From contig JBBSVW010000023.1 in assembly GCA_038046605.1 (NCBI GenBank), positions 1 through 53,859 on the forward strand: a stretch of DNA of 53,859 bases, in the 5' to 3' direction. Made by a program: the position numbers and the translations under genes. Below the pieces are notes generated by a model, which saw nothing but the letters and a program-made list of their open reading frames with translations, made no database searches and was not told the origin of the DNA. The DNA is from Candidatus Micrarchaeota archaeon. Its GTDB lineage: Archaea; Micrarchaeota; Micrarchaeia; Norongarragalinales; SBBD01. Positions within the stretch are counted from its first letter, which is position 1; every line of letters begins with the position of its first letter. Positions 19,984-47,282 of the stretch are shown here, piece after piece.

Positions 19984-20122
19984 CTAATGGAGCTAATTAA
20001 CCATCGAATCGAATGGCAGTGGTTCGATAGGCTAAGAAATACAACAAATATTGCTATTTTTTTCATACCACTAGGTTTTAATTTGGCAAATGAATCATTA
20101 TTTTACCCACAGTGCCCAAAAT

Positions 20123-21547
20123 ATGAAAAAATACGCCATTTTTCTAGTATTTGCATTATTCATATTTGGGTGTACTGGACGGGCGTTCAATTTGAAGGAG
20201 GCACCGGTTTTGGAGGATAATACACCTGTGGAGAATATTCAAAGTAACCCCGGAGATGGAAGTCCTCCTGCAGCCGGTACTGATGAACAATACTATACTA
20301 TAATTGAAAATGGGCAACTCACAATAGAATCTAATTGGGGAAATTCAGAAACAATGTGGTTTAACATAACTTCTGATAGCAATCCATCAGGAAATCCGCC
20401 GGGATTGCCACCAGGCGCGACTATGCCTTGGGCGAATGGATTTTCTACACCAATAACGACATCTTTTTCTTGGACCCCATCAAATTGTCAGAGTAAAAAT
20501 AGTCAATATTCATTCAAAATAAAATTTTGGTCTGATAACAGCCCCTCTCAAACAAATGTTACCAATATAACTGTTATCAACGTCAACCGCCCCCCAACCA
20601 TCACCGGCTACCCGAATTGGGGAAGGGAGGTAGTGCACCTGAATGACGGATATGCCTTGGAATACGTCATAACGCCCCAAGATATTGACAAAGAGGAATG
20701 CGGCGATGACACCGTAGATCTAAGCTATAGCCTTGCATCCGCGGGCTATTCCTTGCTTACCAACAATCAGGGAACCTATCGCTTCCTTTGGATCCCTATT
20801 GCCGCCGACGATGGCAAGCACGAACTTAGGTTTTGGGCATCCGACCAAACATCCGGTTCCGAATACAAGAAATTTACGGTCTATGTGCACAGGCGCTTCC
20901 TTGATTGGAACGCAACGGAAAATTCCACATTCACCTACTCGGATATTATGAATGGCTCAAATTCCTCTGAATCCTTATCCATCCAGCCTGGCAACTTGCC
21001 CCAAGGCGCAACAATGCCGCAGGTATCCGGAATGGGCGCCATTCAATCCCGATTCAGCTGGACCCCAACTTTTTGTCAAACAAGCAATATCCCATATGAA
21101 TTTACGGTGGACCATTACATTAACGGGCAAAAAGCATACGAAAACGTGCATTCCATGCGGGTAAACAACACAAACCGCCCACCAATCATCCAAACGTCCG
21201 CTCCGGCAACTGTTAGCGTGAAAATTGGCGAGAGAGTGACTTTGACATTCAACAAATCCGATCCCGACAGGGATGTTTGCCATGATGATACGGTTAGCTG
21301 GGGGCAGGTGAATTTGCTCCCCAAGAGGAATCCAACGGCATTTGATTATAGCTATTCCGGCACAAACAATGATGTTCTCACCTGGACATGGAAGCCAATG
21401 GTGGATGGGGATATTGGCTCCTACAACCTAACGATTGTTGCCGACGATGGGAAGGGCAAATTCACAAACAAATTGATCAAAATCACCGCCTACAAGCCTG
21501 CTTCCTCATCAGGCTGCGGAGGGAAGTTCCAAAAGCCGTGCACATAG
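20123..21547 (+). CDS. lipobox-bearing cadherin/He_PIG-like four-domain protein (A-B-A-B)
   Basis: MKKYAIFLVFALFIFGCTG is a lipoprotein-like signal. Two copies of the FSWTP..CQ....Y.F......NVNRPP domain alternate with two acidic cadherin-like domains. The tail is YKPASSSGCGGKFQKPCT. Confidence 0.75.
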   Translation: MKKYAIFLVFALFIFGCTGRAFNLKEAPVLEDNTPVENIQSNPGDGSPPAAGTDEQYYTIIENGQLTIESNWGNSETMWFNITSDSNPSGNPPGLPPGATMPWANGFSTPITTSFSWTPSNCQSKNSQYSFKIKFWSDNSPSQTNVTNITVINVNRPPTITGYPNWGREVVHLNDGYALEYVITPQDIDKEECGDDTVDLSYSLASAGYSLLTNNQGTYRFLWIPIAADDGKHELRFWASDQTSGSEYKKFTVYVHRRFLDWNATENSTFTYSDIMNGSNSSESLSIQPGNLPQGATMPQVSGMGAIQSRFSWTPTFCQTSNIPYEFTVDHYINGQKAYENVHSMRVNNTNRPPIIQTSAPATVSVKIGERVTLTFNKSDPDRDVCHDDTVSWGQVNLLPKRNPTAFDYSYSGTNNDVLTWTWKPMVDGDIGSYNLTIVADDGKGKFTNKLIKITAYKPASSSGCGGKFQKPCT

Positions 21548-21589: not shown

Positions 21590-24500
21590 TCACTCCAATG
21601 CTGGAATAATTTTTTCTGTTGGTTTGGCGGAAGGAACCGGAGTTGGGGAGGCCGCAGGTGTTGGCGAGGGATTTGAAGTCGGGGAAGGCATCGGTGTTGG
21701 TGTAGGTACGGGTGTTGGCGAAGATAGGGGGATCCAGCCCATGCGCCTGCCTTCCAAATCAGCGCCTTTTGCCTCAACGAACTTAAGGCCAACAGGCAGG
21801 GAACGGAATTTGAGCAGGGCTATGGTGTTCCTGCCGAAAGGCAGGGGCGTTTCCGAATCGACATAACCAAGCGTCAAATTTTTGCCCTGAACCCGCTCAT
21901 ATGAATCTATATTCGCAGCGGCTGCTTGTGAAACCGCGCCCAGATATTCAGCAGAAACATCGTATGCAATATCGAGCTGGAGCGCTCCGGCATTGGAAGC
22001 GAATTCTGTCTCGACCGGGATGTAAGTAATGCCATCAGCGGAATATGGGGTGCCGAGTGAGGCCGCGAATGTGCTTGATGAGGGAGCGGACGTTACGCAA
22101 CCCGGCTCAGGCGCGCCGCGGAAAACGTGATTGATGAGATGGACTACGTCGAATATGTCATGAACCCCATTCGCGTCAAGATCCCCGATCCACAAAGGCT
22201 GCGGGGGGGCGCCATTCCGGAAGACGTAATTTATCAGCAAAACAACGTCGAAAATGTCCCGCAAACCGTCAGAGTTTATGTCCCCGCACTCCGGCGGCTT
22301 TATTGAAAAGCTGCCGAGCCAATCTATAGCATTAGCAACCAACAGGTTTCGCGCACTTTTGTCGGTTATTGAATCCACAGAAAATCCAAAATAAGCCATT
22401 GCCTTCGTACCCTGCAACGAGGCGAGGATTGCAGATTGCCTTCCCTGCCAGTTGCCAATTGAAATGCTGCTTCCTATTGGCAGCAATGAATCGGGAAACG
22501 GGGAGAGGCTGCCGTTTATCGTGATGTCGGGCACTCCGTAAGTGATATTATGCGGCTGAAGTAAAATAAATTCAGATTCGGCTGCATGAAAATCCTCATG
22601 CAAAGCGCTTATTAATAGCTCTCCCATTACCGCCTCTCCCTTATGGTCGTAACCGAAATCCGCTCCTTCGTATATGACATTTCCGGAATATTGCCTCAGG
22701 AAATTCGCGTCTTCCTCTGATATCAAAGTGGAAAAGTAATCGCCGCCGCTCCAAATCAGCACGGGATATGCGTTTGCAGCCTGCAAATCCGGAAGCCCAT
22801 TTTGAGCTTCTCTCCAGCGCTTTACGCAATGGCCGCCATATTCTGCAGCTTCCTTCAGTGCTGAGAAACTGCTGGGGCTGTCCGTTAATGCGCCTTCCGT
22901 GTCATCGTCTTCGACGATAAGAACCCCAAATTTATCGCAAGTGAATAGTTCAGTTTCGTACTGGTTATTTGAGTAATCGAGTTCAGGGGAACTTGTAGAG
23001 ACTTCCAATATAAGGTGGTGGGTTCCAGCAGAGGAAGCCTGAAAGTTGAAAACGGCGGTTTCCTCCTTGCCTTTCCGAACCAGTAGATCCATCTCATCAA
23101 CAAGCGCTCCGTCAAGATATGCCTTCAATATTGCCTGTGCATCTGTTCCGCCGGCATTGCTTATATTTGCACTTATAATTGCGAGTTCCCTATCTACCTC
23201 AACAGAGACGGCGCCTATGCCTAATTCGGGCTGGATGCTGGCGACCTGCACTTCAGATGACCAGAAATTATTCAAATAGTGCGATTCTTTGATGAAGGAC
23301 CCTTCAGCAAGCCTTAGTTCAAGAAGGTGCTTTCCGGGTGTCAACGAAATAGTAAAATTGATTGTCGAATTCCGGCTTAAAACGGGGACGTTTCCACTTG
23401 CTTTCTCGATGCCGTCGACGAATAATTTTGCCGCATATGTTCCGGAAGCGACGAGTAACCCTAAGTTCCCAACGAGGAATTCCAATTTATTATTCCCTTC
23501 CACTAGATAAGGGAGGGCGACTCCAATGACGGCGAAATCCGGCGAATTTTGGCGGGTGGAAGAAAGCCAGCCATATGCATCCAGGACGATGGATTGCGCA
23601 ACTGGCTTTCCGAGAGCATTGAGCGAGAAGGGGAAAATTGCCGATTTGCCTATTGATTCATTCACAACAATTGCGGCACTTTGGTCTGCCCAAACCGCTA
23701 CTGGCGTACCGGCCATTGCCTCCAAAGAGTCGGGGTAGGGAGAAATGGTTCCATTGACCTGGGAACCGTTTGCCAACGAGGATAGAAGCCGATGATTGTG
23801 GATTTTATAGATTGGTGCGGTATTTGCAACCCCTAGATTCAGTTCATTGCTGTAGGAAGCGCCTAGTGAAGCCATGAGCGAATCCGCCCTGTGCCTGAAA
23901 GCTACATCCTCCCCCACTAAAAGAACGCCTCCGCCGGAAGATAAATAATCCGCAATTGCCACCGCCCCTTCATCATTCACATTTCGATTGAATAACCGCC
24001 CTGCATCCCAAAAGACGGCCTTGAACCGCTTCATGTAATTTGCATCAGGAGCGCCGCCCCATCTTTCATTCCAAAGCGCCAGGCACATATTATCGAGTGC
24101 GGCAAGGTATGGTGATTTGTCCGAAAGCTCATCCTCATATACAAGGAGTGCGTTCTTAGGGCTGCATGAATTCACTTTAAATGTTTTTTCAGGGGACGTT
24201 ACGCAATTGCCTTCCTGGTCGCAAAGCTCGTAATAGTAGAAATATGTGCCGGTGACCGAAGTGCCCGTAAATGCACCGGAAAATGTCCGTAAATTTCCTA
24301 TTTTCCTCCGTTCGAGCAGAGGATATGAGAAATTTTGTTGGTTGGGCGAGTATATGTGGGCAACCGCATTGACGGAGGAGAGATCAAAGAGCTCAAGTTT
24401 CGTCTCAAAAGGCGCATTGAGGGGGATCGCAGCTGAAGAGGAATCATCAATTATTGCGGGCGGTGCCGTATCCAAAACAATCATGTTCATAATTACCTCC

Positions 24501-26293
24501 GCATTGTTTCCGGAGTAGGTTGCCATCGCTCGTGCCTGTTTCGTTCCGACGGAGGTCGCGTTCCAGCTGAAATTGGCGCTGAAGTTACCTCCTGCAATCA
24601 CATCAGTGAGAACCGTATCCTGGCTGAAAATTACAGTGCCATTATCTATAACGGCGAAGGCGAGGATGGTTTGCAAGGTTGTGTTTCCTTGATTCTCAAA
24701 TAAAATGGTGGGATTCGCAACTTCCCCAAAGTCAATGGTTGCGGGAATATCGTATAGGGTTAATCGGCCGTCAGTGTTCGGCAACGGAAATACCTCGAAA
24801 TTAGAAATCAACTGATGCGTATTTCCCTGGAAATCTCGAACGTTCACAATAATGGCGTAATTACTAACGTCTAGTGTATTGCTGAAAACAGCCTTCCAAT
24901 GGGTAGAGTTCAGTTTGTTGAAGCTAATATTGACGGAATTGTTGGATGGGGTTAAGACGCTTCCGCTAAGAGTGATATTCTGATCGTTTGTGACCAGAAA
25001 AATATCGATAGGCGAATTTGCCGATATGGAGCGGGAATGTTCAAGCCGGTATTTCAAGATCAAATTTACGTTTTCAGGAAGAAGCTTGCTACAGTCAACT
25101 AAGCCAGAGCCGAATTGTACATCCTTGCCGGCAGAGCCCAGATCTATTGCGGTTGTTTCAAGTAGGTATTTTACTTCCGGGGGAGTAAGGCGGGGATTTT
25201 GTTGCAGCAGTAACGCAGCCAACCCGGAAACATGGGGCGCTGCCATGCTAGTACCGCTGTCGGTCCCAAATAAGCCTCCCGGAAGAGAGGAATTAATGAA
25301 TACTCCCGGCGCAACGACATCAGGTTTCATGTAGGTGCCCAAGGCTGCACCTGATGAAAAACACGCCCATTGATTGTATTTGTCAACAGCCCCCACGGAT
25401 ATTGCATCAGGAGAGTTGCCGGGCGTGCCAATTCCCACATACCCGTTGCAGCTTATGGATGGGCAACCAACGCCGCAATTTCCAGCGGAAACAACTACGG
25501 TTGCACCCGAAGAAACCGCATCACTGACAGCTGATAATATGGGGGAAACCAAGTTATTGTACGCCCCTCCCAAGCTCATGGAAATTATATCTGCACCATC
25601 ACCGGTTGAAACGTTATTGTCTGGATTTAATGCCCAATTGATCCCTGCAATGATGTCAGCCTCGTAACCGTTTCCGGCATTGTCCAGCACCTTGCCATTG
25701 AGAATGGATGCACCAGGCGCTACCCCCCTAAGTACGCCGTTCCCGGCCGCGATACCCGCCACATGAGTGCCATGACCGTTCCCATCCTGCCAACTTGCCT
25801 CCCCTGTAAAAACTTTGTTGGCGACAATTCGCCCTGCAAACATGGGATGGCTGGTATCGATTCCCGTATCAAGTATGGCCACCCTCACCCCTGTTCCGTC
25901 ATAACCAGCAGACCATAGATCATCCGCATTTATTTGAAGGGCGCTTCCCGACAACTGAATATGAAATATCCGGTTTGGGGATACCGACTTGACATAATTT
26001 AATTTTGCTATTTCCGGAAGCTTGCCTGCGGGAATTTCGGCATAAATGATATCACCAATTTTGAATTCGGACTTGACTTTACCCCCATTTGAAATAATGG
26101 AATCCTTCATTAATTGCATCGATGCTTCGCTTGATGCTGAAAATAATACCGGCACAGTTTGGGCTGGTTTCGACTTTGATAATTCCTTAAGTTCTCCTTG
26201 GATTTTCGTATAGGTGACGCTTTCCGCCTGCTGACCTGAGGCATGGATTGCACTAATCAGGAAAAGTAAAATGACAGCCAGCATGAATCTCAT
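21590..26293 (-). CDS. secreted S8 subtilisin-like serine protease with long C-terminal extension (CARDB-like, two flavodoxin/GATase-like repeats, dockerin pair, cohesin-like module, PT-rich tail)
   Basis: Signal MRFMLAVILLFLISAIHASG and an I9-like propeptide. Catalytic motifs are AILDTGID (Asp), HGTHVAG (His) and GTSMAAPHVSG (Ser). Dockerin repeats are DINSDGLRDIFDVVLLINYVF and DLDANGVHDIFDVVHLINHVF. The C-terminus is SSPTPVPTPTPMPSPTSNPSPTPAASPTPVPS. Confidence 0.9.
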   Translation of the reverse strand: MRFMLAVILLFLISAIHASGQQAESVTYTKIQGELKELSKSKPAQTVPVLFSASSEASMQLMKDSIISNGGKVKSEFKIGDIIYAEIPAGKLPEIAKLNYVKSVSPNRIFHIQLSGSALQINADDLWSAGYDGTGVRVAILDTGIDTSHPMFAGRIVANKVFTGEASWQDGNGHGTHVAGIAAGNGVLRGVAPGASILNGKVLDNAGNGYEADIIAGINWALNPDNNVSTGDGADIISMSLGGAYNNLVSPILSAVSDAVSSGATVVVSAGNCGVGCPSISCNGYVGIGTPGNSPDAISVGAVDKYNQWACFSSGAALGTYMKPDVVAPGVFINSSLPGGLFGTDSGTSMAAPHVSGLAALLLQQNPRLTPPEVKYLLETTAIDLGSAGKDVQFGSGLVDCSKLLPENVNLILKYRLEHSRSISANSPIDIFLVTNDQNITLSGSVLTPSNNSVNISFNKLNSTHWKAVFSNTLDVSNYAIIVNVRDFQGNTHQLISNFEVFPLPNTDGRLTLYDIPATIDFGEVANPTILFENQGNTTLQTILAFAVIDNGTVIFSQDTVLTDVIAGGNFSANFSWNATSVGTKQARAMATYSGNNAEVIMNMIVLDTAPPAIIDDSSSAAIPLNAPFETKLELFDLSSVNAVAHIYSPNQQNFSYPLLERRKIGNLRTFSGAFTGTSVTGTYFYYYELCDQEGNCVTSPEKTFKVNSCSPKNALLVYEDELSDKSPYLAALDNMCLALWNERWGGAPDANYMKRFKAVFWDAGRLFNRNVNDEGAVAIADYLSSGGGVLLVGEDVAFRHRADSLMASLGASYSNELNLGVANTAPIYKIHNHRLLSSLANGSQVNGTISPYPDSLEAMAGTPVAVWADQSAAIVVNESIGKSAIFPFSLNALGKPVAQSIVLDAYGWLSSTRQNSPDFAVIGVALPYLVEGNNKLEFLVGNLGLLVASGTYAAKLFVDGIEKASGNVPVLSRNSTINFTISLTPGKHLLELRLAEGSFIKESHYLNNFWSSEVQVASIQPELGIGAVSVEVDRELAIISANISNAGGTDAQAILKAYLDGALVDEMDLLVRKGKEETAVFNFQASSAGTHHLILEVSTSSPELDYSNNQYETELFTCDKFGVLIVEDDDTEGALTDSPSSFSALKEAAEYGGHCVKRWREAQNGLPDLQAANAYPVLIWSGGDYFSTLISEEDANFLRQYSGNVIYEGADFGYDHKGEAVMGELLISALHEDFHAAESEFILLQPHNITYGVPDITINGSLSPFPDSLLPIGSSISIGNWQGRQSAILASLQGTKAMAYFGFSVDSITDKSARNLLVANAIDWLGSFSIKPPECGDINSDGLRDIFDVVLLINYVFRNGAPPQPLWIGDLDANGVHDIFDVVHLINHVFRGAPEPGCVTSAPSSSTFAASLGTPYSADGITYIPVETEFASNAGALQLDIAYDVSAEYLGAVSQAAAANIDSYERVQGKNLTLGYVDSETPLPFGRNTIALLKFRSLPVGLKFVEAKGADLEGRRMGWIPLSSPTPVPTPTPMPSPTSNPSPTPAASPTPVPSAKPTEKIIPALE

Positions 26294-26364
26294 AATTATC
26301 CCGTCGTCAGGAACGACCACCAAGGCTTTTCAATAACCTAGTTCAATGCCTTTATTCTCATGAT

Positions 26365-28410
26365 TTAACCAACTTTCCATGCCCTCATCTCTTCCACGAG
26401 CCACTTTCTTAATTTTTCTAACTTTTCGGGGAGGGGCCTTTGAGGCATGACTCCCGCACTAAACCTAACGATCACTTTAACCTCTGGATTTTCATCCCTT
26501 GCTGCTCCGATCTCCCTGCTCAAGACTTTTTGCAAAGCTGCAGCGTCATATTCGTGCCCGTTTAATTCAGTCTTATCTTCGCCCCAATAATAATTAATGT
26601 AAAAATGCTTCCAACCAATATATTTTTCCAATTTTGGATACACTTTGCTTTCTTCCTCCCAATTTGCGGAAAATAGCATTGGCAACTTGGAAGGAACTAA
26701 TAAGATCCCGTTTTCCAGCTGCTCAACCCTGAAAGCAGGTGCGGAGAGGAGCTTTTCCTTGCCTATTTTCTCAACTATCGATGAGGAATAGAAGTTGAGC
26801 CAGAAGAACAGTTTATGAACATTCGGCGGTGCCTCCCCCTTCGAGAGGTTTTTATAAAGTTCGTCCCAATCATCGATTGACCCTATTTCGAACCGTGTTT
26901 GGTCGCCTGTTCCATAAAATCCTGCTTTTCCCAAAGATCTCCAAATCGCCTTTGCTAATTCAATTAATCTCTCGCTTCTTATCTCATACTCATGAAGTTT
27001 TGTTTCCCGTTCCTTCTCGTCCCCGATATACTTCAAATTATATACATCATATAAGGGGAAGTTGTAAACCGCTAACGAGACTTGAATTATGGGTGCGAGG
27101 GGCGAATTATTTATAGATAAGTGTAGAAGAGACGGAGGGGAGCTTTCAGGATCAGGTGAGTCTAAAAACCAAACTCCGGTTTTTCCTGTGGATAATTCCC
27201 TGATGGCTTGCCCTAATGTCAACTCCGAAACATCCTCATAGCCCCTTAAGTGATAGCTAGGCATCGGGCTTTGATTAGCATCGGATAAACCCGTACTTAC
27301 TCTTTTCGCTATTTCGACTGAAGATATCCTATTTGAAGGGCAATAAAAGTGAAGTTGCAAATCATCGTAAAATTCGGCATTCCTTTGAACCCTCCATGCC
27401 CCCATCTCATCGAGCAGCCACCTTCTTAATTTCTCGAATTTTTCTGGCAACGGCCTTTCTTTGGCGTACCAATAGTTAAGTCTCACAAATATCCTCAATT
27501 CTGGATTTTTCATTCTCGCTTCGCCGATCTCTACCTTGAGAATATCTTGCAACGCAGCGACAGTGTAAGCCCTATCCCGCCATTCCGCTTTGTCCTCTCT
27601 ATTACCTATTTCTATGAAAATATGCATCCATCCGAAAAATTTATATGCCTCTTCATATTGCGTATAAAAATTAGGAGGTGAAGCTGGGTCGCAGCTATGA
27701 GGCAATTTTGACAGCATTAGCACAAACCCATTTTCAAGCTGTTCCGCTCTATTCGCGGGTGCGGAGAAGAGCTTTTCCTTGCCTATTTTCTCAACTAGCG
27801 ATGGGGAATAGAAGTTGAGCCAATAGATTTTAGGGCTTGCATCCGGAGTGACCCTTTCCTTTGAAAGATTGCGTTCGAAAAATATGTTATCTGGAAAATC
27901 TAGTCGCAAAGCCCAATAATAGTCAACTTTTCCATAAAGAGCGTTTTTTCCTAAAGAATTCCAAATGGCCTTAGCTAATTCAAGGACTCTTTCACCTCTC
28001 GATTCATATTCTCCAAGTTTTTTATCAAATTCCTTTGGGTCTTTAACGCCCCTAAGACTGAGGGCATCAAGGGCAGATTTGTGGAAAGATAAGTGGACAT
28101 CATAAATTCCCTCATAATTCCATAGGGTGATGCCGAGACTCATTTCGGTTCCAAACCTTATGGCCGAATCCTCACGGTCAACAAATCCTACAGACTCCCC
28201 AATCGTGATGCTCCCATTTCTTTCTTCATGGGATAGCGTTTTAATCGCTTTAGCGACCGTCATTTTTGGAAGGCCTTTAAACTCTTCGGTAATGTTGCTG
28301 AACTCAAAACCATTTTCAAGCAAAGCCGATACTACTCTTTCAGCTAATTTTTTTATATCAATATTCTTAGAAGATGAATAAAAATGCAGCCATATGTCAG
28401 TCTCGCTCAT
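26365..28410 (-). CDS. cytoplasmic protein, internal tandem duplication 2 x (A+B); the A modules are homologous to the 233-aa protein at 29294..29995 (candidate immunity/partner fusion)
   Basis: No signal peptide. Residues about 1-250 and 345-590 align with each other and with the 233-aa protein (MSETDIWLHFYSS / LQLHFYCPS / MSDNDIVIHVFVG; YWLNFYSPSLVEKIGKEKLFSAP / FWLNFYSSSIVEKIGKEKLLSAP / YWLEIYSNELLGKVKF; QLENGFVLMLSKLP / QLENGILLVPSKLP / KLENGVFLLASPLP). The B modules are also duplicated (RPLPEKFEKLRRWLLDEMGAWRV / RPLPEKLEKLRKWLVEEMRAWKV). The start overlaps the upstream stop (ATGA). Confidence 0.85.
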   Translation of the reverse strand: MSETDIWLHFYSSSKNIDIKKLAERVVSALLENGFEFSNITEEFKGLPKMTVAKAIKTLSHEERNGSITIGESVGFVDREDSAIRFGTEMSLGITLWNYEGIYDVHLSFHKSALDALSLRGVKDPKEFDKKLGEYESRGERVLELAKAIWNSLGKNALYGKVDYYWALRLDFPDNIFFERNLSKERVTPDASPKIYWLNFYSPSLVEKIGKEKLFSAPANRAEQLENGFVLMLSKLPHSCDPASPPNFYTQYEEAYKFFGWMHIFIEIGNREDKAEWRDRAYTVAALQDILKVEIGEARMKNPELRIFVRLNYWYAKERPLPEKFEKLRRWLLDEMGAWRVQRNAEFYDDLQLHFYCPSNRISSVEIAKRVSTGLSDANQSPMPSYHLRGYEDVSELTLGQAIRELSTGKTGVWFLDSPDPESSPPSLLHLSINNSPLAPIIQVSLAVYNFPLYDVYNLKYIGDEKERETKLHEYEIRSERLIELAKAIWRSLGKAGFYGTGDQTRFEIGSIDDWDELYKNLSKGEAPPNVHKLFFWLNFYSSSIVEKIGKEKLLSAPAFRVEQLENGILLVPSKLPMLFSANWEEESKVYPKLEKYIGWKHFYINYYWGEDKTELNGHEYDAAALQKVLSREIGAARDENPEVKVIVRFSAGVMPQRPLPEKLEKLRKWLVEEMRAWKVG
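26738..26802 (-). repeat. near-identical 65-nt patch, copy 1 of 2 (partner at 27758..27822)
   Basis: GGTGCGGAGAGGAGCTTTTCCTTGCCTATTTTCTCAACTATCGATGAGGAATAGAAGTTGAGCCA differs at 3 positions from the copy exactly 1020 nt upstream. The flanking codons of the two halves are far more diverged. Confidence 0.85.
27758..27822 (-). repeat. near-identical 65-nt patch, copy 2 of 2
   Basis: See 26738..26802. The offset of 1020 nt equals 340 codons, so the patch is in frame. Confidence 0.85.
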
Positions 28411-29288
28411 TGGAGCACCTCAATACCCGCAATTATCCCACGCATTTCTTCATCAAAAAACCGCACAACATCATCATCCGGCATTTGCTCTAAAACAAAT
28501 GTAAGTCCGCCCCTTCCTTCCAACTCTTTACCCCTTACAAGTTTGTTTATTTTATCCCGAAGATATTCGATGTCCGGCGCCTCAAGGTATACGGATTTCA
28601 CTTCATCATCGCCGTTAGTCCCGGTTTCCGCTGCTTCGGAAGGCAGGATTATTTTCTTCCAACCGTTTCCGACAGAAGCCAACAATTCGGCCCCATCTGT
28701 CCGCACATTCGCGTTTGTCCGCGCCCGCATACCGCCGTATTCGATTTCGATGCCATCGGCGGCCTTCTCAATTTTGACCTTCAAGACGGGTTCACTTGTA
28801 ACCCGCGGCTTGTATTCTGAAGGCGATAGCGGTTCTTCGGACGCACTTGGCCTGGGCAACTGGGCAATTATCTGCAGAGTTGAACCGGGCAATTGCTTAA
28901 CCTTGGAAGAAGACCGGCCATTGCCCGAATCTTGAACGGTTATGGATGCTCCCGAGCGGTCAGTTGAAGTAATGCTAATTGTTGTTGGGTCGGGGGATGT
29001 TCGATAGGCTTGCCCTTCAATAACCTGCACAACCACGGTAATGAAATTACCTCCCATTGAAAGATTATAGGTGCCGTTTTCGGAATTGGATGGTGTGGGT
29101 TGGACGCTAATCCGAATTATAGGTATCAATGAAGGGGCAGGAGACGCACATGGCTCATCGTAAGTGCCATAAGGATCGTTCAACGCGCGGTAAATGCGCT
29201 CGGTGGGGCAAGGAGCGTTGGGCGGGCCTATTTCCGCAGCTACGGCAACAAGAAGTGCAGTAATTGCGATCAATAAACTAATTTTCAT
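28407..29288 (-). CDS. secreted chimeric protein: N-terminal about 220 aa like the 326-aa protein (33772..34752), C-terminal about 65 aa like the end of the 1258-aa protein
   Basis: Signal MKISLLIAITALLVAVAAE. LPGSTLQIIAQLPRPSASEEP aligns with VPGSEVRLIARLPTPTISPEP, and KKIILPSEA with RKLILPSLA. The tail LRDKINKLVRGKELEGRGGLTFVLEQMPDDDVV...IIAGIEVLQ aligns with ILDKITKLTNAVRMEGRGGIRFVFENTPFSDVI...DIIGWEVLT. A TTG at 29297 is an alternative start. Confidence 0.85.
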   Translation of the reverse strand: MKISLLIAITALLVAVAAEIGPPNAPCPTERIYRALNDPYGTYDEPCASPAPSLIPIIRISVQPTPSNSENGTYNLSMGGNFITVVVQVIEGQAYRTSPDPTTISITSTDRSGASITVQDSGNGRSSSKVKQLPGSTLQIIAQLPRPSASEEPLSPSEYKPRVTSEPVLKVKIEKAADGIEIEYGGMRARTNANVRTDGAELLASVGNGWKKIILPSEAAETGTNGDDEVKSVYLEAPDIEYLRDKINKLVRGKELEGRGGLTFVLEQMPDDDVVRFFDEEMRGIIAGIEVLQ

Positions 29289-29293
29289 ATTTT

Positions 29294-29995
29294 TCAATCA
29301 CCCAAATTGATGCCTTTAGGCTGGCAGGTATATGGCAACGGGGAAGCCAAGAGGAACACGCCGTTTTCAAGCTTTTCACTTTTCCTTGAATTAACGAACT
29401 TAACCTTCCCCAATAGTTCATTCGAATAAATCTCCAGCCAATATTTTTTATCCCCTCCAAATGTTTCAAGAGTCTGGAGGAAATTCTGCAACGGCTCGAA
29501 GTTAGCCTCCTTCAAATAAAGAACGTCGTCCCCAACCGCAAAAACTGCTAAGTCGCCCAACGAATCCATAATGGATTTAGTGGTGTTAAGCAATAGTCTT
29601 GCCCTTCCATAAAACTCCTTAAGTACAGGTCCAGCTACCTTCGGGTCTTCGTTATCCAGAACCTGCATCCGGGCGTTGAGTGGACTTTTTGGAACCGAAT
29701 AATGAACATTATAATATTTGCCGTTATGATCATAAATAAATAGGAACAATACCGCATAATCCGTACTCAACATCACGTGCTTGCCAACCACAAAGGTTCC
29801 ATGCCGCTCTCCGGAGCATAATCTTTTTACAGCCTCATCTATAGTCATGTCGGATTTACCGTCTTTTTTTTCTATTACATTATAAAAATGAAGCCCGCTC
29901 TTCAGCATGGCAGTAAGCACCCTTTTTGCTATTTCTTCCTTTTTCAATTTATTTTTGCCAACAAATACGTGTATTACGATGTCGTTATCGCTCAT
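29294..29995 (-). CDS. cytoplasmic 233-aa protein, single A module (candidate immunity/partner of the upstream C-terminal module)
   Basis: No signal peptide. Its ATG overlaps the TGA of the 1258-aa gene (TCAT on the plus strand at 29992..29995). It is homologous to both A modules of 26365..28410. Confidence 0.85.
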   Translation of the reverse strand: MSDNDIVIHVFVGKNKLKKEEIAKRVLTAMLKSGLHFYNVIEKKDGKSDMTIDEAVKRLCSGERHGTFVVGKHVMLSTDYAVLFLFIYDHNGKYYNVHYSVPKSPLNARMQVLDNEDPKVAGPVLKEFYGRARLLLNTTKSIMDSLGDLAVFAVGDDVLYLKEANFEPLQNFLQTLETFGGDKKYWLEIYSNELLGKVKFVNSRKSEKLENGVFLLASPLPYTCQPKGINLGD

Positions 29996-32900
29996 GTCAA
30001 CACCTCCCAGCCGATAATATCCCCTTTACTTACCGCATTATTCAAAACCGTAATTACATCACTGAACGGGGTATTTTCAAAAACAAAACGAATACCGCCC
30101 CTGCCTTCCATCCGAACTGCATTTGTCAACTTCGTGATTTTATCCAAAATAACATCTTTGGCGGGATTCCCAGACTTGAATTCTAAAATTGAATTATCAT
30201 TAAGAATTGCATCGAAGTCCGTAATATCCCTACCACCACTTCTTACTGCATGGCTTACTTCAACAACCTCATCTGCATGACTCGAGCGAGAAGCAGCTTT
30301 AATTTCGAAAAGATAACCCGTTAGTTCCCCGTCGGTAGACCTGATTATCTTTTCTTCGATCTTATCTATCCCCACAACTCCCCTGCTGCGCAATTTGTTC
30401 ATATTCTCGAAGGCTTCTTCAGCCCCTTCCTTCGCCACTCTGGCAATTTTTTTGCCTGCATCCTGCCTTATCGGAGAGCCCTGTACGAATTCGTCCAATC
30501 CTTTTATCGCGTCGTCGGACCAGCGAGTAGTATCTACGCCGATATCGACAGCCTTCCTAAAAATGCCGATGTCGTCGAACCACCTGGCAAGTTTCTGGAT
30601 GCCTTCCTTTCCATAAGAGAATAAATCGTCACCAATTTTTCCAATAGCCTTAGTTGCTTTTTCCAGTATTTCTACTTTTTTGATACCTTTGCCCACAGTA
30701 ATTCCGACTACGCCCACCAACCCGACGGGGATCAATGGCGAGGCAATGTCACCGATAAGGAATGCCTCTTCCACCCAGCATTTATTCGCAGTAACGCCCG
30801 CCTCCCGCCTTATGGTTGCGGTGCAAGTTTTAAAGTCCCCAGAGCAGCTCTCAATTGCTTTTATGCATCCAGAAAAGCCGCTCCCAAATGCACTCTGGTT
30901 TGAGTAAATTATGCAACTGCAGTACTCTTCGGTGCTTAATCCTATGGAAATAAGATCGACTACTTCCAACGCTATGACTCCCAGGGCAATAGCACTCGTA
31001 TTGACTGAACCGTTCGATGCACTCCCGATTCTATTGGATGGTGAAAACGTAGTTTGGAATGAAAGCGTTTGGACTGGCGATTGCAAATTAACGGACTGGG
31101 TCAACTGATAAAGCCCGGAATATGAAGGATTTGTAACGGCATATCGGACATCCACCCTATGGTTGCCGTAATCAATGTTTTCAATATATGCAAAGCCGAA
31201 CACATTCGTTAATGCCTTAGGATCGTCGTATTTCGAATCCAAAAATACGTATGCGTTTGCAACCGGGTACCCATTAGGGTTATCCGTATTTATTTTCAGG
31301 TTCCCCTTCTGGACGGGCTGGGTGCAGGCACAATCAAAATACGCCCATTCGCTTCCGTCCACGTACACATTCCGGATTCCGCAGTAGTTGCCATTGGGGC
31401 AATATACTGTAACGGAATGAGACCCGTATTTAGCGGACGAGGATAATGTGCCGTCGTCTCCGGTTACACCCACAGCATTGCCGTCAATACTGACCGAAGC
31501 GGATTTCACGGGGCCATATCCTGCATTAATATCGTCAACATCCACGGAAATTTGGCCGTATTGAGAAGCAGGGCAATAAGGCTGGTCGGGTATGCAGCCG
31601 TTTGTGCAAGTTTCCTTATAGCACATGCAAGTATTCTGGCTGGAATCAAAATAGCAGTTGTAATTCCTTCGATTACCGTCGCATGTGTTGTCGAACAAGG
31701 AGCAATCGGTTGATGATGTAAAGATAATGTCGCCGAAGTTCACATCGCCCATGAAGAAGAAGCAGCTGTTTCCCAAATTATCATATACCGTATACTTCGT
31801 GCCCCCGACGGTTACCTTTACTTTATAATTTCCGGAATTCCCGTTCAGGGCGAAGTAACCGTTAGCATCTGTAGATGTGCCGGATACGAACGAATCGGAA
31901 CAGGTTGCTAGCTCCATCGGTGCGCCTGCGATGGGCGTGCCATTCGGGTTCTTGACGTATCCGTGAACTGAAGTTTTCATCGGCAGCTTGATGGTGGACA
32001 ATTCCCACGCGCCGGCAGCATAGTATTTGCATGCCTGCCCCTCTACCGTAATATCAAAAGTCGCGAAATTTGTTACAATTTTGAGCTTGTAACTGCCAGG
32101 TTGCGCAACCAGCGTATATCTGCCCGAAGAATCCGTCGTGGAGGAAGTAACGAAATTGCCGCTGCAATCGGTGAACTGCGCCTGCAATCCCTGCTGGGGG
32201 GTGCCCTGCTCATCCTGAACAATTCCGGTGACGCTTGCCTGGGTTACGATGATAATTGGATTATTGAGTGCGTAATAACCCGGCACCCACCTATAGCAAC
32301 TGATGCCGTCAATCGGGACTTCAACCGTTGTGCCAGAATAGGTTGCCTTAAGCTTATAGGTTCCGTACGGGGCAACGAGAGTGAACGAGCCATCGCCCGC
32401 GGTTGTGGCACTGGCGACAGGGTTGTCCGAACAGTCCGTGAAGCGCACGGCCGCGCCCGAGAGTGGGGCGTTGGCGCTGTTTTTCACATAGCCCGTGAGG
32501 TGCACTTTTACAATAATTTGGATGTTGGGGAAGGTCCAGCCGCCGGGTGTGAACAGGAAGCACTCCGAAAGGGGGATCTGGCCCCAGCTCGTGTCCGCCC
32601 AAACTACGTACTGGCCCCACTTTTCCTGCGGGAAAACGAAATGGCCGCTTCCGTCGGTGAAAGCGGTTTGCTTCGGATTTCCAACGCAATCCTTCAGCCT
32701 CATCAGGTAGCCGGAAAGAGGCGCGCCGTTTTCGTCCCTCAAATAGCCGTCTATATCCACGCGGTCATTGACAGTCAGGTCGCCAAAATTTACGGTGTCG
32801 ACGAGCCTCAAACAGGTATTTCCCGAACCGTCGCCAATGTAAACCCATGCCGACCACGGCATCCAGAATTTAATCTTGTAATAGCCATTCACGTCATTGA

Positions 32901-33768
32901 TCCTGAAAATCCCGAAGGCATCTGTAGAAATCGGCTGCATGTTAATATCATTGCAATCGGTCAATTGGCCGGTCAGGTATGCGTACGGGACACCGAACTG
33001 GTTGGCTAATTTTCCGGTGGTGCTCATGAAGCCGCCAATTACTGAGAAATAATTCGTAAAGGCTGAAACGGTAGAGCCGGGAATAGACAGCTGGGTGAAC
33101 CAACGCATGTTCGGGCCCCAATAATTGGTGGGCCAGTTCAATTCTCCCAGCCATTGAGAGGCGAAGCCGTTTAAGGGCCAGGGGGGGAAGGTGGTTGGCG
33201 GACCCATAACGCCGTTTTCGTCGACGAAGCGAATCGTTTCCGTTGCCTGGACTGCGGGGCCGTTGTTTTCCACGAAGCGCCTTATAATTTGGGTCTCGGT
33301 TTTGTAGAAATAAAGGGTCTTGTCCGTTGAGGCAGTGTAGCGGCCTAGGCTTGTGGGCGATAAAACACCCTTCTGGGCGATATCCGCAATTTTTTGAACG
33401 CCACTCACTACGGTCAGGCTGGGCTTGTACGACGCCAATGCCGGCCAATCACCGCCGGTGGTTATCGTCGTGAAGTTCGCATTGCTGACGAGCGAATAAT
33501 TGTAGGGGTGGTTATATGTGACCGTGTAAACGCTTGAGGATTCCACGGCCTGCAATGCGCTGGAGGTCGCTGCAAATGAGCCCGCACTTTCGCTTATTTG
33601 GAGGCTGCTTATGCCAGAATAGCCCGTTGCAATAACTGCGTTCAATTCGGATTCGGGAATAATTGTTGGGGAAGGGTCGAGGGAAACTTTCGCGCCTAAA
33701 GCACCGGAGGTTAGCAGTGCGACTGCAAGAAGCAGTACTATCGCAAGCAAGGAAATTTTTCCATGCAT
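29992..33768 (-). CDS. giant secreted repeat protein with C-terminal Hjc/PD-(D/E)xK-like module (candidate polymorphic-toxin-like effector)
   Basis: Signal MHGKISLLAIVLLLAVALLTSGALG. It has at least 5 tandem carboxypeptidase-regulatory-like beta-sandwich repeats, each with a (T/K)DC motif (for example GYVKNSANAPLSGAAVRFTDCSDNPVASATTAGDGSFTLVAPYGTYKLKATY). A Cys-rich knot (CSLFDNTCDGNRRNYNCYFDSSQNTCMCYKETCTNGC) follows. Two hydrophobic segments lie at aa 924-944 and 1002-1026. The 232-aa tail ends ...HAVRSGGRDITDFDAILNDNSILEFKSG...MEGRGGIRFVFEN. Confidence 0.9.
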   Translation of the reverse strand: MHGKISLLAIVLLLAVALLTSGALGAKVSLDPSPTIIPESELNAVIATGYSGISSLQISESAGSFAATSSALQAVESSSVYTVTYNHPYNYSLVSNANFTTITTGGDWPALASYKPSLTVVSGVQKIADIAQKGVLSPTSLGRYTASTDKTLYFYKTETQIIRRFVENNGPAVQATETIRFVDENGVMGPPTTFPPWPLNGFASQWLGELNWPTNYWGPNMRWFTQLSIPGSTVSAFTNYFSVIGGFMSTTGKLANQFGVPYAYLTGQLTDCNDINMQPISTDAFGIFRINDVNGYYKIKFWMPWSAWVYIGDGSGNTCLRLVDTVNFGDLTVNDRVDIDGYLRDENGAPLSGYLMRLKDCVGNPKQTAFTDGSGHFVFPQEKWGQYVVWADTSWGQIPLSECFLFTPGGWTFPNIQIIVKVHLTGYVKNSANAPLSGAAVRFTDCSDNPVASATTAGDGSFTLVAPYGTYKLKATYSGTTVEVPIDGISCYRWVPGYYALNNPIIIVTQASVTGIVQDEQGTPQQGLQAQFTDCSGNFVTSSTTDSSGRYTLVAQPGSYKLKIVTNFATFDITVEGQACKYYAAGAWELSTIKLPMKTSVHGYVKNPNGTPIAGAPMELATCSDSFVSGTSTDANGYFALNGNSGNYKVKVTVGGTKYTVYDNLGNSCFFFMGDVNFGDIIFTSSTDCSLFDNTCDGNRRNYNCYFDSSQNTCMCYKETCTNGCIPDQPYCPASQYGQISVDVDDINAGYGPVKSASVSIDGNAVGVTGDDGTLSSSAKYGSHSVTVYCPNGNYCGIRNVYVDGSEWAYFDCACTQPVQKGNLKINTDNPNGYPVANAYVFLDSKYDDPKALTNVFGFAYIENIDYGNHRVDVRYAVTNPSYSGLYQLTQSVNLQSPVQTLSFQTTFSPSNRIGSASNGSVNTSAIALGVIALEVVDLISIGLSTEEYCSCIIYSNQSAFGSGFSGCIKAIESCSGDFKTCTATIRREAGVTANKCWVEEAFLIGDIASPLIPVGLVGVVGITVGKGIKKVEILEKATKAIGKIGDDLFSYGKEGIQKLARWFDDIGIFRKAVDIGVDTTRWSDDAIKGLDEFVQGSPIRQDAGKKIARVAKEGAEEAFENMNKLRSRGVVGIDKIEEKIIRSTDGELTGYLFEIKAASRSSHADEVVEVSHAVRSGGRDITDFDAILNDNSILEFKSGNPAKDVILDKITKLTNAVRMEGRGGIRFVFENTPFSDVITVLNNAVSKGDIIGWEVLT

Positions 33769-33771
33769 ACC

Positions 33772-34752
33772 CTATCCCATCGCCAGGAACGCCCACCATG
33801 GCTTTTCAATGCTTTCAACCCGCCTGGTTTCCGCATTCACAAAGGTTTTCAGAGGCATATTTACCTCCAGGAGCCCAAACAGCCTCGTTCGCCTTTCGGA
33901 TGATATTTGGTATATCGGCCTTCCTCCCTCAACCTCCAATTCAAATTTAGTTATCGCGCCTAGCTGGGCCTTGATCGGGGCAAGGGCCAATGATGGCAAG
34001 ATCAACTTCCTCTTCTCGCTTCCGGCTTCCACCTTCAAGTCCCCATTTACCAAGAAGAGCTCCCGGGTAGTTTCTGCCACAATACCCCCCTCTTCAATTA
34101 GGGTTACATCCCCTATTTTTGAAAGCTTCACTTTCCCGCCCTCATTATTTATCTCAGCATTTCCCTCAGAAACTTCTTGTGGGGAAATTGGTTCTGCTGT
34201 TGGCTGGATGGGCTCGATTTCGTCCGCAGGAGGTAGGGGAGGCGATTCAGGCGACTGTGGGGTCGGCTCCGGTGAAATTGTGGGGGTGGGAAGGCGGGCG
34301 ATGAGCCGGACTTCCGAACCCGGCACTACCTGCACGTTTGGCATGTATGGCGGAGATGCCTGAATTGTGGAGATGGTTACTGTGTCGGTGTAGCTTCTGA
34401 CCGGTTTGTTTAGTGAATAGTTTCTGGTTTCGTAAGAGACGTTCGCGCCAATTTGCGAGGGCGTAGAAGATGCAAACATTATAGGAGGAATTACGTTTGG
34501 CGATCCATTGGAGAGGTTAACATTAATCATCAACGGGAAGGGCGCTACCGGCATGCTCGTAGGAAAACCAATTGATGGGGAGGCGCTTGGGCAGGGAGTG
34601 CGGTTGTACGGATAAATCAGAATGCTATAAGGAGCGCACGGCGTTGGCGTAACGTTTTCCGCAATTGCATTAGGCATAAGGGAAACGATAACGGCGAAAA
34701 ACATGCCTGCTGGCAGTATGAGAAGAAGCTTCCGGTTCAATTCCACCCCCAT
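33772..34752 (-). CDS. secreted protein, first gene of the operon (Pro-rich linker; C-terminal KPWWAFL module)
   Basis: Signal/anchor LLLILPAGMFFAVIVSLMPNAIA and the linker ARLPTPTISPEPTPQSPESPPLPPADEIEP. The C-terminus is FELEVEGGRPIYQISSERRTRLFGLLEVNMPLKTFVNAETRRVESIEKPWWAFL (PepSY-like pattern from memory, unverified). Its stop is 3 nt before the next start. Confidence 0.85.
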   Translation of the reverse strand: MGVELNRKLLLILPAGMFFAVIVSLMPNAIAENVTPTPCAPYSILIYPYNRTPCPSASPSIGFPTSMPVAPFPLMINVNLSNGSPNVIPPIMFASSTPSQIGANVSYETRNYSLNKPVRSYTDTVTISTIQASPPYMPNVQVVPGSEVRLIARLPTPTISPEPTPQSPESPPLPPADEIEPIQPTAEPISPQEVSEGNAEINNEGGKVKLSKIGDVTLIEEGGIVAETTRELFLVNGDLKVEAGSEKRKLILPSLALAPIKAQLGAITKFELEVEGGRPIYQISSERRTRLFGLLEVNMPLKTFVNAETRRVESIEKPWWAFLAMG

Positions 34753-43055: not shown

Positions 43056-43201
43056 AGCCCCCGGCGAGAGTCGCACTCGCGGCCTTTTCCTTTTCGATAC
43101 CTTGTCACTTTTTTCTTTGGCGCGGAGCCACCGCACCTTTCTTTTCTAAAGAAAGGGGCAAGGCATACCAAGGAAACGCTCTACTGCTGAGCTACGGAGG
43201 C
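43056..43201 (-). tRNA. tRNA-Thr (anticodon GGU) with a roughly 74-nt intron after position 37
   Basis: The reverse complement reads GCCTCCG TA GCTC AGCAGTA GAGC G TTTCC TTGGTA [intron] A GGAAA AGGCC GCGAG TGCGACT CTCGC CGGGGGC T. All four stems pair (one G-U in the acceptor). The T-loop has G at the normally invariant position 55. Confidence 0.7.
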
Positions 43202-46172: not shown

Positions 46173-46610
46173 GCCGTTCAGCCAATAACTCTATCAGCTC
46201 GTATTTAATAATAACTTCTTCCGCAAGAACCATCCGAACCCCTCCCGCGGAAGCAAAGCCCCAAATCCTCCGCTCCTTCACCCTAGCCCTTCAGCTCTCT
46301 GCCAAACCCTGGATAATTGGTGGAAAATATTCCCAAAATTTTGCCGTTAATTTTAAGGGGTGAAGTTTTACGCCTGTTCAACCCCTTAAATTTTCTAGCG
46401 CAATAGCGGTTTTTGTATTCTGAAACGAGTTCTCGATTTCTCCGCCTGGTTTGCTCCATATAATATATCTATATTATACGACTATCTCGCCTTGCCTCAA
46501 ATAGGCCGATTTTTCTATTATCCTCTTTATTGATGCCAACAAATAGGCTTATATTGTGCAATTTGTTCTACTATTTAGTAGTTTAAACACCGCAATAGGC
46601 AGTGGTATTT

Positions 46611-47282
46611 ATGGCGTTTTGGTCAAGTGATGCCGGACGGGTTCACAATGTACTATTATCTCGGCCAAGTCGAGTAATTTCCAGCAACGAAGTGAAGCGC
46701 GTTTGCAGGGCCGTAGGGGTCAAGTACAAGACCGCATTAGCAGGGCTTACGAGGGCTAAAGTCATTGTTCCCGTGGTCTTCAAGGGGATTTATTACGTCC
46801 GTGACCGTGATGAGCGAGACCTTGAAACTATCCGAAAGGATGCGTTGGATTCGGTTGCCCAGGCCTGTGCCCTTAAACTGGGCAAGGATTGGTATTTTGG
46901 ATTGGCTACGGCGCTCTTTTTATCCGGGATTTGGGGTCAGCAGGCCCTGACTACGATAACCGTCATCTCAAAAAGACGCATCCAACGGAAAAGCCGCTTT
47001 GCGGGGATGAACGTCGAGTTCAGGCAGTTGGCCGGAGTGCCTTTTTCCTTGCAAGTGAGCCGCAAGGGGCATATCCGTTTCAGTGAGCCCAGTCGGACGG
47101 TTTTGGATTACGCTTATTTTGGAGCCCGCGACCCGAAAATGAGGGAGTTTGCCAAGGCCATTTATTTCGAATATTCTGCAACGGCAGGTGGCAAGGTTAA
47201 GCGGTTTTCAAGGATTCGCAATTTAATCCGGAAATATCCCCGGCTTTATGGGGTTTATCTGCGCAGGCTTTTTGAGGAATAA
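46611..47282 (+). CDS. abiEi: AbiEi-like antitoxin/transcriptional regulator
   Basis: A 220-aa protein immediately upstream (3-nt gap) of an AbiEii-type nucleotidyltransferase. The N-terminus is wHTH-like. Assigned mainly by context. Confidence 0.55.
   Translation: MAFWSSDAGRVHNVLLSRPSRVISSNEVKRVCRAVGVKYKTALAGLTRAKVIVPVVFKGIYYVRDRDERDLETIRKDALDSVAQACALKLGKDWYFGLATALFLSGIWGQQALTTITVISKRRIQRKSRFAGMNVEFRQLAGVPFSLQVSRKGHIRFSEPSRTVLDYAYFGARDPKMREFAKAIYFEYSATAGGKVKRFSRIRNLIRKYPRLYGVYLRRLFEE

Follow-up and report, generated by a model that had tools for sequence, protein, structure and literature searches.

Toxins with a restriction endonuclease (REase) fold form a major class in bacterial polymorphic toxin systems (Zhang et al. 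2012, PMC3482391), in which a secreted multi-domain repeat protein carries an exchanged C-terminal cassette, an immunity gene lies directly downstream, and orphan cassettes and extra immunity genes follow further down. Archaeal polymorphic systems with PD-DExK toxins were predicted computationally (PMC6393860), and archaeal polymorphic toxins were predicted by Makarova et al. (2019), as cited in PMC8416519. As of 2021, predicted contact-dependent polymorphic toxins of archaea lacked experimental characterization (PMC8416519); an experimental example of archaeal antagonism is the haloarchaeal contractile injection system (PMC11566945). In bacteria, the DUF3396 immunity protein TsiV3 neutralizes TseV3, a type VI effector of the PD-(D/E)xK (VRR-Nuc) kind (PMC9635880). 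Here we describe five consecutive genes, g1 to g5, within a 53,859-nucleotide (nt) stretch from a Candidatus Micrarchaeota archaeon (contig JBBSVW010000023.1; the window). We consider it likely that they constitute a Sec-dependent archaeal polymorphic toxin locus, with a predicted nuclease tail on g2 and predicted immunity genes in g3 and g5.

The cluster (26365-34752) consists of five open reading frames (ORFs) on the minus strand, all intact, and every feature of g1 to g5 given below lies on that strand. The ORF list places g1 at 33772-34752 (326 amino acids, aa), the predicted toxin precursor g2 at 29992-33768 (1258 aa), its predicted cognate immunity protein g3 at 29294-29995 (233 aa), g4 at 28407-29297 (296 aa from a TTG, or 293 aa from the ATG at 29288 used in public gene calls) and g5, a tandem fusion of two units of the g3 family, at 26365-28410 (681 aa). 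The genes are tightly packed: g1 and g2 are separated by 3 nt (TAG-GGT-ATG in the sequence), the g3 start overlaps the g2 stop in an ATGA, g4 begins either in a TTGA overlap or at the ATG 5 nt past the g3 stop, and g4 and g5 share another ATGA. A Kyte-Doolittle scan shows a hydrophobic N-terminus for g1, g2 and g4 and none for g3 and g5; throughout, "signal-like" refers to N-termini defined by this hydropathy alone. An earlier interpretation made from the letters of the DNA (the sequence-only reading) had described the five minus-strand ORFs with their sizes and junctions, the distribution of signal segments, the combination in gene 4 of parts like those of genes 1 and 2, and the homology of gene 3 to a doubled gene 5; the ORF list, the junction sequences, the hydropathy scan and the BLASTP comparisons given below agree with it on each of these points. 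The anatomy of the cluster and its homologies are not a chance pattern. The surrounding DNA is archaeal chromosome, encoding aIF2-alpha, a PAC2 proteasome chaperone and FKBP26. An identical g3 protein is assembled from four groundwater samples, with flanking gene models of equal length; these we take to be Hainich groundwater metagenomes, one contig name indicating the Hainich site. A scan for promoters and terminators was not enriched over shuffled sequences, and, being of bacterial type, it is uninformative for an archaeon.

The protein encoded by g2 has a signal-like N-terminus followed by CarboxypepD_reg/transthyretin-like β-sandwich repeats (aa ~337-660, 31789-32760; Pfam E = 1.5e-37, four stretches), presumed to form an extracellular stalk, and it has a sub-threshold match to the archaeal Fn3 family Fn3_arc (27.7 bits, with a cut-off of 28.9 bits). 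Its C-terminal third runs from a first hydrophobic segment (aa 925-945) through a six-Cys loop to a second (aa 1002-1025), which contains the motif GD.ASP.IP.G and has KGIKK directly behind it, then through a helical linker to a domain of ~110 aa. The loop spans 55 aa, and its cysteines (950, 952, 968, 975, 982 and 997) are all invariant in an alignment of g2 with five tails of the type found in anaerobic methanotrophic (ANME) archaea (alignment A5, six sequences), as are GD.ASP.IP.G and the linker motifs W.DD and T..W.DDA..GL. The pre-toxin module so defined by hydropathy and invariant columns (aa 925-1025, 30694-30996) had no match in Pfam or NCBIfam; the last 340 aa of g2 had none in Pfam, and an NCBIfam scan of all five cluster proteins gave nothing above noise. 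Relatives of g2 are present in ANME-1 (L006, 33% identity over the last 355 aa, E = 1.5e-49) and in ANME-2 (L009), and the g2 ectodomain is 39% identical to both proteins. Judging from these features, g2 is predicted to be a large exported protein with a stalk.

The exchangeable C-terminal region of g2 (aa ~1057-1258, 29995-30600) comprises the helical linker and the predicted PD-(D/E)xK nuclease toxin domain (aa 1147-1258, 29995-30330). The candidate catalytic residues are G1151, E1155, D1186, E1196 and K1198, the last two forming E1196-F-K1198. Alignment A5 does not vary at G, F-E, D and ExK; in a wider alignment of ten tails, two of them of the DPANN type (A6), G, E and D remain invariant and ExK is present in all ten, offset by two residues by MAFFT in the two DPANN rows. 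The E...(P)D...(D/E)xK catalytic signature thus appears in register across the tail homologues. In a more distant homologue (L019), the tail reads ...RPDIVTKTQIIECKSG..., a textbook form of the motif (RPDIV...IIECKSG), and matches Tox-REase-3 (PF15647) at E = 0.0012, the only near-significant Pfam match; the tail of L012 weakly matches Mrr_cat (E = 0.02, 15.4 bits), NA-iREase1 (E = 0.076, 13.5 bits) and UPF0102 (E = 0.16, 12.8 bits). Those Pfam matches of homologous tails that indicate a common fold are all to REase-fold families, and all are sub-threshold. A PHROGs scan of eight tails returned no informative match. The residue set G...E, D, ExK is shared with Tox-REase-3 and Tox-REase-7, the motif of the latter being GxxxE, IxD, ExK and Q (PMC3482391). 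Because the motif is conserved, the weak matches point in a consistent direction and the partner family has the identity described next, we regard the g2 tail as a likely, though not proven, PD-(D/E)xK nuclease.

The g3 family was searched with a profile built from g3 and the two halves of g5 (A1) against 1.84 billion representative proteins, which yielded 135 relatives at E ≤ 1e-3, 19 of them at E ≤ 1e-10, most 200-330 aa long; a word-index search with g3 recovered g3 only. A C-terminal motif, W-LNF-GPE-VEKIGKEKLLSAPAYKVEEL-DGG, characterizes the family. The g3 protein is similar to the first half of g5 (BLASTP E = 4e-29) and to the second (E = 3e-12), and the two halves are 41% identical to each other over 345 aa (E = 4e-67). 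Each g5 unit (27376-28410 and 26368-27375) is composed of a part A, equivalent to g3, and a part B, an extension of ~100 aa. The B parts, at about 27376-27690 and 26368-26670, have the pattern FGWKHF...RPLPEK.EKLR.WL..EM.AW and a weak match to RecO_N_2 (E = 0.016) as their sole Pfam match; ANME partners carry the same extension and g3 does not. Indeed, the A+B form is the usual one beside ANME-type tails (P0003-P0008; L005-L009).

Among the relatives of g3, TsiV (PF11876, "type VI immunity for VRR-NUC", formerly DUF3396) is matched by 4 of 75 at E ≤ 0.01 and by 16 of 133 at E ≤ 0.1 (best 3.2e-5), and any other family is matched by at most two. A model of g3 computed with AlphaFold2 (AF2) from a 75-sequence alignment has a predicted local distance difference test score (pLDDT) of 81 and a predicted template modeling score (pTM) of 0.83. 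The structure comparison proposed in the sequence-only reading for this 233-aa protein was carried out with Foldseek, and it returned an immunity protein: the sole match in the Protein Data Bank (PDB) at E ≤ 1e-3 is PA0821 of P. aeruginosa (7DRG, chain 7drg_B; E = 8.1e-5, probability 1.00), a DUF3396 protein that protects against a PD-(D/E)xK type VI toxin and is reported as the closest structural neighbor of TsiV3 (PMC9635880). The same model gave nothing at E ≤ 1e-3 in a viral fold library, and PDB sequence searches with the g2 tail, with g3 and with the partner profile A2 gave nothing significant. From the family matches and the model we conclude that g3 and g5 would represent a distant archaeal branch of TsiV-like immunity proteins, outside the Pfam family by threshold. 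A subset of partner relatives of ~400 aa had been considered as bona fide bacterial TsiV proteins; this was dropped, TsiV being weakly matched in 2 of 10. The sequence-only reading had held that neither the partner family nor the delivery part could be assigned to a named family. The tail now has a PD-(D/E)xK signature and the partner is placed as a distant TsiV/DUF3396 relative, and what stands of that claim is the scaffold, which has no named delivery module.

The partner family and the tail occur together well beyond this locus. A genome scan with the partner-family alignment found ten loci, all archaeal, in ANME-1 Methanophagales, a Methanobacteriota metagenome-assembled genome (MAG), ANME-2 Candidatus Methanogaster, a Nanoarchaeota MAG, an uncultured archaeon and Candidatus Iainarchaeum; look-ups of exact proteins and a metagenome scan, which gave at least four loci, all ANME-2-like among the matches listed, completed the locus set. 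When local hidden Markov models of tail and partner were searched against all ORFs of the collected loci, every tail match, in 13 distinct loci, had a partner-family gene behind it, usually with overlapping stop and start; the named sources of these loci are ANME-1, ANME-2, the Methanobacteriota MAG and Iainarchaeum. For example, the 1105-aa g2 relative of ANME-1 (L006) ends 1 nt ahead of its partner gene, and the 1564-aa protein of Iainarchaeum (L013) and the 1549-aa protein of the uncultured archaeon (L012) are each directly followed by one. At these loci the g3 family is encoded beside a tail with the PD-(D/E)xK motif, and the proposal that it is linked to the C-termini of secreted proteins, for which an absence of linkage in other genomes would have been damaging, holds because every tail match has its partner gene directly after it. 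One further locus (L021, 2-3504) encodes two nuclease-motif tails that differ from each other. Behind the first is a 239-aa gene to which the partner model has no match; the second, a stand-alone cassette of 185 aa, precedes a partner-family gene (P0023). The acid-rich composition of the proteins of this locus suggests a haloarchaeal origin.

The same scaffold carries different tails. A profile of the hairpin and tail region (A5) retrieved 16 proteins, of which seven (P0136-P0142) have the nuclease-type tail. In the other nine, which are ANME-2 relatives (P0143-P0151), a signal-like N-terminus, one immunoglobulin (Ig)-like repeat and the six-Cys hairpin lead into a tail of unrelated sequence (...GFKLGIIHYVSWWDELSQ..., with its end near GWEHI). 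Proteins with the one tail part sharply from those with the other after EYVKxG, ~30 aa past the second hydrophobic segment, at a point that aligns with SYGKEG in g2. Both types can occupy one locus: in L009 a nuclease-type toxin is followed by its partner gene and then by a second toxin of 566 aa (4844-6544) with the other tail, and L005 has the same order, with the second toxin gene at 2096-3090. Such C-terminal exchange on a homologous scaffold is the defining behavior of polymorphic toxins, and the family displays it in these comparisons. Displaced material is also found, as a putative orphan cassette or extra immunity gene in g4+g5, L007 and L021 and as second toxins in L005 and L009. The L007 element, a scar ORF analogous to g4, is 162 aa long (2426-2914) and lies after the partner gene, with a signal-like N-terminus, fragments of scaffold and the last ~50 aa of a tail. 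As for the second tail type itself (GWEHI.. / GFGWEHIS..), it varies at its extreme C-terminus and has no Pfam match, and a 185-aa ORF (3095-3652) after the second-type toxin of L005 may be the immunity gene of that toxin.

Within the window, g4 preserves the trace of one such displacement. Its aa 133-222 resemble aa 140-256 of g1 (31% identity, E = 8e-9 by BLASTP), the likeness extends to the N-terminus in a four-way alignment (A8), and g4 tracks the g1 family to about aa 222; roughly the 5' two thirds of the gene, with the signal-like N-terminus and the linker, derive from a g1 paralogue. Its aa 241-295 resemble aa 1202-1257 of g2 (41%, E = 5e-9), so that the toxin-tail-derived end comprises aa 241-296 (28410-28577) and the switch covers the last ~56-70 aa. 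From the nuclease motif g4 retains ExK at most; since the upstream E and D are absent, nuclease activity of g4 can be excluded. The 3' part that its g1-like parent has lost lies on the other side of g5. The last 12 codons of g1 read IEKPWWAFLAMG-stop, followed by 3 nt and the g2 start, and a near-copy, IEKPWWSFLTTG-stop, is found between g5 and the downstream S8 protease gene, at 26297-26334 (direct repeat D4, 34 of 38 nt identical to the g1 3' end), followed by 2 nt and the real S8 start codon. In the simplest history that these sequences suggest, the S8 gene formerly had a g1 paralogue in front of it, of whose last ~60 codons all but a dozen were replaced by a cassette consisting of a toxin 3' end and g5, and the remnant would be the missing 3' end of the parent of g4. 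The sequence-only reading had spoken of shuffled secreted modules; the chimera is real, and the 38-nt repeat marks g4 as a recombination scar and not as a designed shuffle.

Together, the signal-like N-terminus, repeats, tail exchange, linked partner and orphan cassettes support the polymorphic toxin/immunity-like layout that had been proposed for this cluster. The proposal had likened the locus to the CdiA/Rhs/MafB type, and it does resemble CdiA/CdiI, Rhs and MafB loci in its general layout and in the logic of C-terminal cassettes displaced along with orphan immunity genes; membership in these families was rejected, however, as their signature domains are absent from g2 (no TPS/FHA, VENN, YD/RHS repeat or MafB-N match in Pfam or NCBIfam) and no CdiB-like transporter accompanies it. 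Archaea also have no outer membrane. More broadly, the g2 scaffold matches none of the RHS, filamentous hemagglutinin, LXG/WXG, PAAR, MafB-N, HINT and PrsW families, and has instead a six-Cys hairpin at the pre-toxin junction, a PepSY-like first gene and a giant S8 neighbor. With TseV/TsiV the locus would share the pairing of a PD-(D/E)xK-type nuclease with an adjacent α+β immunity protein (PMC9635880); the g3 model has PA0821 as its one significant PDB match, g3 relatives match TsiV weakly, and both systems have tandem immunity genes (TsiV1.1/1.2 in Salmonella, g5 here). It differs in that delivery would be by a Sec signal on a giant surface protein, in having no PAAR/VgrG type VI machinery and in its archaeal hosts; moreover, g3 is shorter than TsiV (233 compared with ~330-360 aa) and below the Pfam threshold, and the g2 tail has no VRR_NUC match. 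From the Tox-REase families it is set apart by tails that do not reach the Pfam cut-off and by a TsiV-like partner, whereas the immunity families listed for those toxins are Imm-SUKH, Imm7, HEAT repeats, Imm23 and Imm54 (PMC3482391). The VARTIG proteins of Thermococcales (PMC8416519), compared here by description, are likewise large Ig-like proteins with a signal peptide; their C-terminal part varies and recurs in shorter genes further down, but this variable part is an Ig domain and no known toxin or immunity domain is involved, whereas here an enzyme-like domain is coupled to a cytoplasmic partner.

The kind of system is therefore already known, polymorphic REase-fold toxins being described in bacteria and predicted in archaea. 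What appears to be new is the six-Cys-hairpin scaffold, the conserved PepSY-like and S8 neighbors, the archaeal TsiV-like immunity and the spread over ANME-1, ANME-2, DPANN and a groundwater archaeon; some overlap with the families of Makarova et al. (2019) is possible. The pairing of a TsiV/DUF3396-like protein with a PD-(D/E)xK domain, known from type VI systems of bacteria, would extend to archaeal proteins exported by Sec, in a family that covers ecologically important and mostly uncultured archaea, namely the ANME-1/ANME-2 methane oxidizers, DPANN and the groundwater archaeon. The locus also offers a clonable candidate pair, the ~200-aa tail and the 233-aa partner, with candidate catalytic residues and a clear exchange junction, and the window keeps a readable footprint of the insertion of a toxin-immunity cassette.

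In the mechanism we propose, g2 would be exported via its signal peptide and displayed on the stalk of β-sandwich repeats, and its exchangeable cassette of helical linker and PD-(D/E)xK nuclease would degrade nucleic acid in a neighboring cell. The g3 protein, translated in the cytoplasm, its start codon overlapping the stop of the toxin gene, would be the cognate immunity protein, and most likely blocks the substrate-binding face of the nuclease in producer and kin cells; binding and blocking of the nuclease has been proposed for TsiV3 (PMC9635880). Presumably, g4 and g5 represent a cassette that is older or has been displaced, a toxin 3' fragment with a double immunity gene, recombined into a g1 paralogue, in which g4 would be an inactive scar and g5 may still give extra immunity, against a related tail variant. 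The g1 protein and the giant S8 protease would act as accessory factors that probably mature or release the toxin.

Several observations weigh against this reading. No family model in Pfam or NCBIfam matches the g2 tail at threshold, the best match of a homologous tail (L019 to Tox-REase-3) is itself sub-threshold at 19.6 bits with a cut-off of 25, and the A6 tail profile found no solved structure among PDB sequences. The sole model of the g2 tail, computed with AF2 from the single sequence, is unusable (pLDDT 37), so that the REase fold is a prediction from sequence. On the partner side, the TsiV matches inspected (n = 2) score 13-14 bits, below the 25-bit gathering score, and cover one motif region at profile positions 164-226, and g3 itself has no PF11876 match; the TM-scores between g3 and PA0821 are low (0.39 and 0.27, root-mean-square deviation 10.6 Å), and the match would fit a distant relative or a partly shared domain. 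Six of the ~21 partner-family loci have no adjacent toxin (L010, L011, L014, L016-18, L022/23), and g5 in the window is preceded by a tail fragment alone, orphan immunity genes being expected in polymorphic toxin systems. Finally, an acidic flank follows the first hydrophobic segment of g2 and a basic flank (KGIKK, KSR, ERR) the second, and by the positive-inside rule these charges are ambiguous, as they would also fit a single span with a cytoplasmic tail. The ANME-1 orphan (L010) holds a truncated partner-family fragment (1720-2115) and, at 3004-8703, an apparent DNA methyltransferase and a large helicase-like gene, surroundings that suggest a defense island.

A nuclease-like tail on an exported protein and an overlapping gene for a cytoplasmic partner would fit equally well a secreted or surface nuclease for scavenging extracellular DNA or remodeling biofilm, with g3 protecting the producer before export, as barstar protects the producer of barnase, and with no antagonism. 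Nucleotide scavenging would plausibly benefit DPANN and ANME archaea. We nevertheless consider this account unlikely, as homologous scaffolds bear an unrelated tail with no nuclease motif and a different downstream gene, displaced tail fragments come with additional partner genes (g4/g5, L007), some loci have an orphan partner gene and no toxin gene close by, and structurally the partner is nearest to an immunity protein that belongs to an interbacterial weapon. The tail swaps, displaced fragments and orphan partners, together with the duplication and fusion of the partner gene in g5, argue for an arms race and not for a housekeeping enzyme.

The charges around the hydrophobic segments bear on another possibility, that g2 is a single-span receptor whose cytoplasmic nuclease tail is held by g3 and released on a signal such as virus attachment or envelope damage, as in an abortive-infection or suicide module. 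Partners with no signal peptide would suit such an arrangement, and the window, which also encodes AbiEii and AAA_14 ATPases, is a defense-rich neighborhood. The DPANN-type toxins of L012 and L013 speak otherwise: they have a signal-like N-terminus and carry the same tail, followed by the same partner family, with no strong hydrophobic segment before it, and for this reason export of the tail is favored for DPANN-type toxins, and for the g2/ANME-type scaffold either topology may apply. If the signal peptide of g2 is cleaved and both hydrophobic segments span the membrane, the C-terminus would lie outside. The stand-alone cassette of L021 has no membrane part, and exported polymorphic toxins typically swap their tails at a fixed junction. 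We regard the receptor as quite improbable, and a cytoplasmic signaling tail, which the sequence-only reading had named among the outcomes at odds with its proposal, is likewise unlikely given the N-termini and hydropathy of the DPANN homologues. A third alternative, in which the whole locus is in decay and no longer functions, its likeness to toxin loci being historical, has in our view a very small chance of being true: g4 is plainly a scar of recombination and 12 codons of a former gene remain downstream, but the five ORFs, including those of 1258 and 681 aa, are intact, g2 keeps catalytic-type residues, the overlapping start/stop junctions are preserved, and g3 is identical, with flanking gene models of the same length, in four groundwater samples.

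If the locus is a polymorphic toxin locus, as we favor, its neighbors bear on how the toxin might be handled. The g1 protein has a signal-like N-terminus, a Pro-rich linker and a PepSY-like C-terminal module. No Pfam or NCBIfam family matches g1 itself, and its homologue in L012 has a weak full-length PepSY match (E = 0.063). In L012 (1939-2991) and L013 (1845-3041) a g1 homologue immediately precedes the gene of the big toxin, and in L011 one sits after an orphan immunity gene. Downstream of g5, 71 nt from its stop as the sequence-only reading had it, is the ATG (26293) of a giant secreted S8 subtilase (21590-26293, minus strand, 1567 aa; Peptidase_S8 E = 6.5e-57). L012 and L013 encode relatives of this protease after the partner gene, similar to it beyond the catalytic domain (27% over 881 aa for L013), and in L015 the S8 gene overlaps the partner stop, on a contig that holds the catalytic region only. 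The unit probably reaches as far as the S8 gene, whose product is a candidate for processing or releasing the toxin. More speculatively, the six-Cys hairpin, always found ahead of the exchangeable tail, might together with g1 and the S8 protease form a previously undescribed archaeal delivery apparatus, in which the hairpin would hold the toxin at the producer membrane, a PepSY-restrained protease would free it, and hairpin or linker would carry the nuclease across the single membrane of the target, for use by ANME consortia or DPANN episymbionts in kin discrimination or host manipulation; we hold this scheme tentatively and think it rather doubtful.

Concerning the S8 gene, a 1577-aa ORF from a TTG at 26323 is an extension artefact, the extra codons reading the g1-like remnant out of frame ahead of the real start (MRFMLAVILLF...). 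By eye, two dockerin-like repeats can be made out in the protease, GDINSDGLRDIFDVVLLINYVF and GDLDANGVHDIFDVVHLINHVF, and its C-terminal tail is rich in Pro and Thr. An RDD-family membrane protein is encoded between the partner and S8 genes in L012 (8261-9169, E = 7.5e-25) and L013 (8373-9773, E = 4.5e-27), with none in the window. The two AAA ATPases said to lie upstream on the same strand are there, and both are of the AAA_14 type; they were rejected as part of the system and are treated as context, because their sole counterpart, upstream in L012, is weak (28% over 152 aa).

Elsewhere in the window, long ORFs with no Pfam match lie at 16011-18959 (minus strand, 982 aa), 20090-21547 (plus, 485 aa), 51413-53431 (plus, 672 aa) and 7257-8525 (minus, 422 aa). 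The AbiEii-type nucleotidyltransferase toxin is encoded at 47285-48253 on the plus strand (Pfam E = 2.5e-26), and a 226-aa gene that abuts it upstream (46602-47282, plus), with no Pfam match, may be an AbiEi-like antitoxin. A 146-nt tRNA at 43056-43201 on the minus strand, scored at 48 bits by Rfam and unreported by ARAGORN, is presumably an intron-containing archaeal tRNA.

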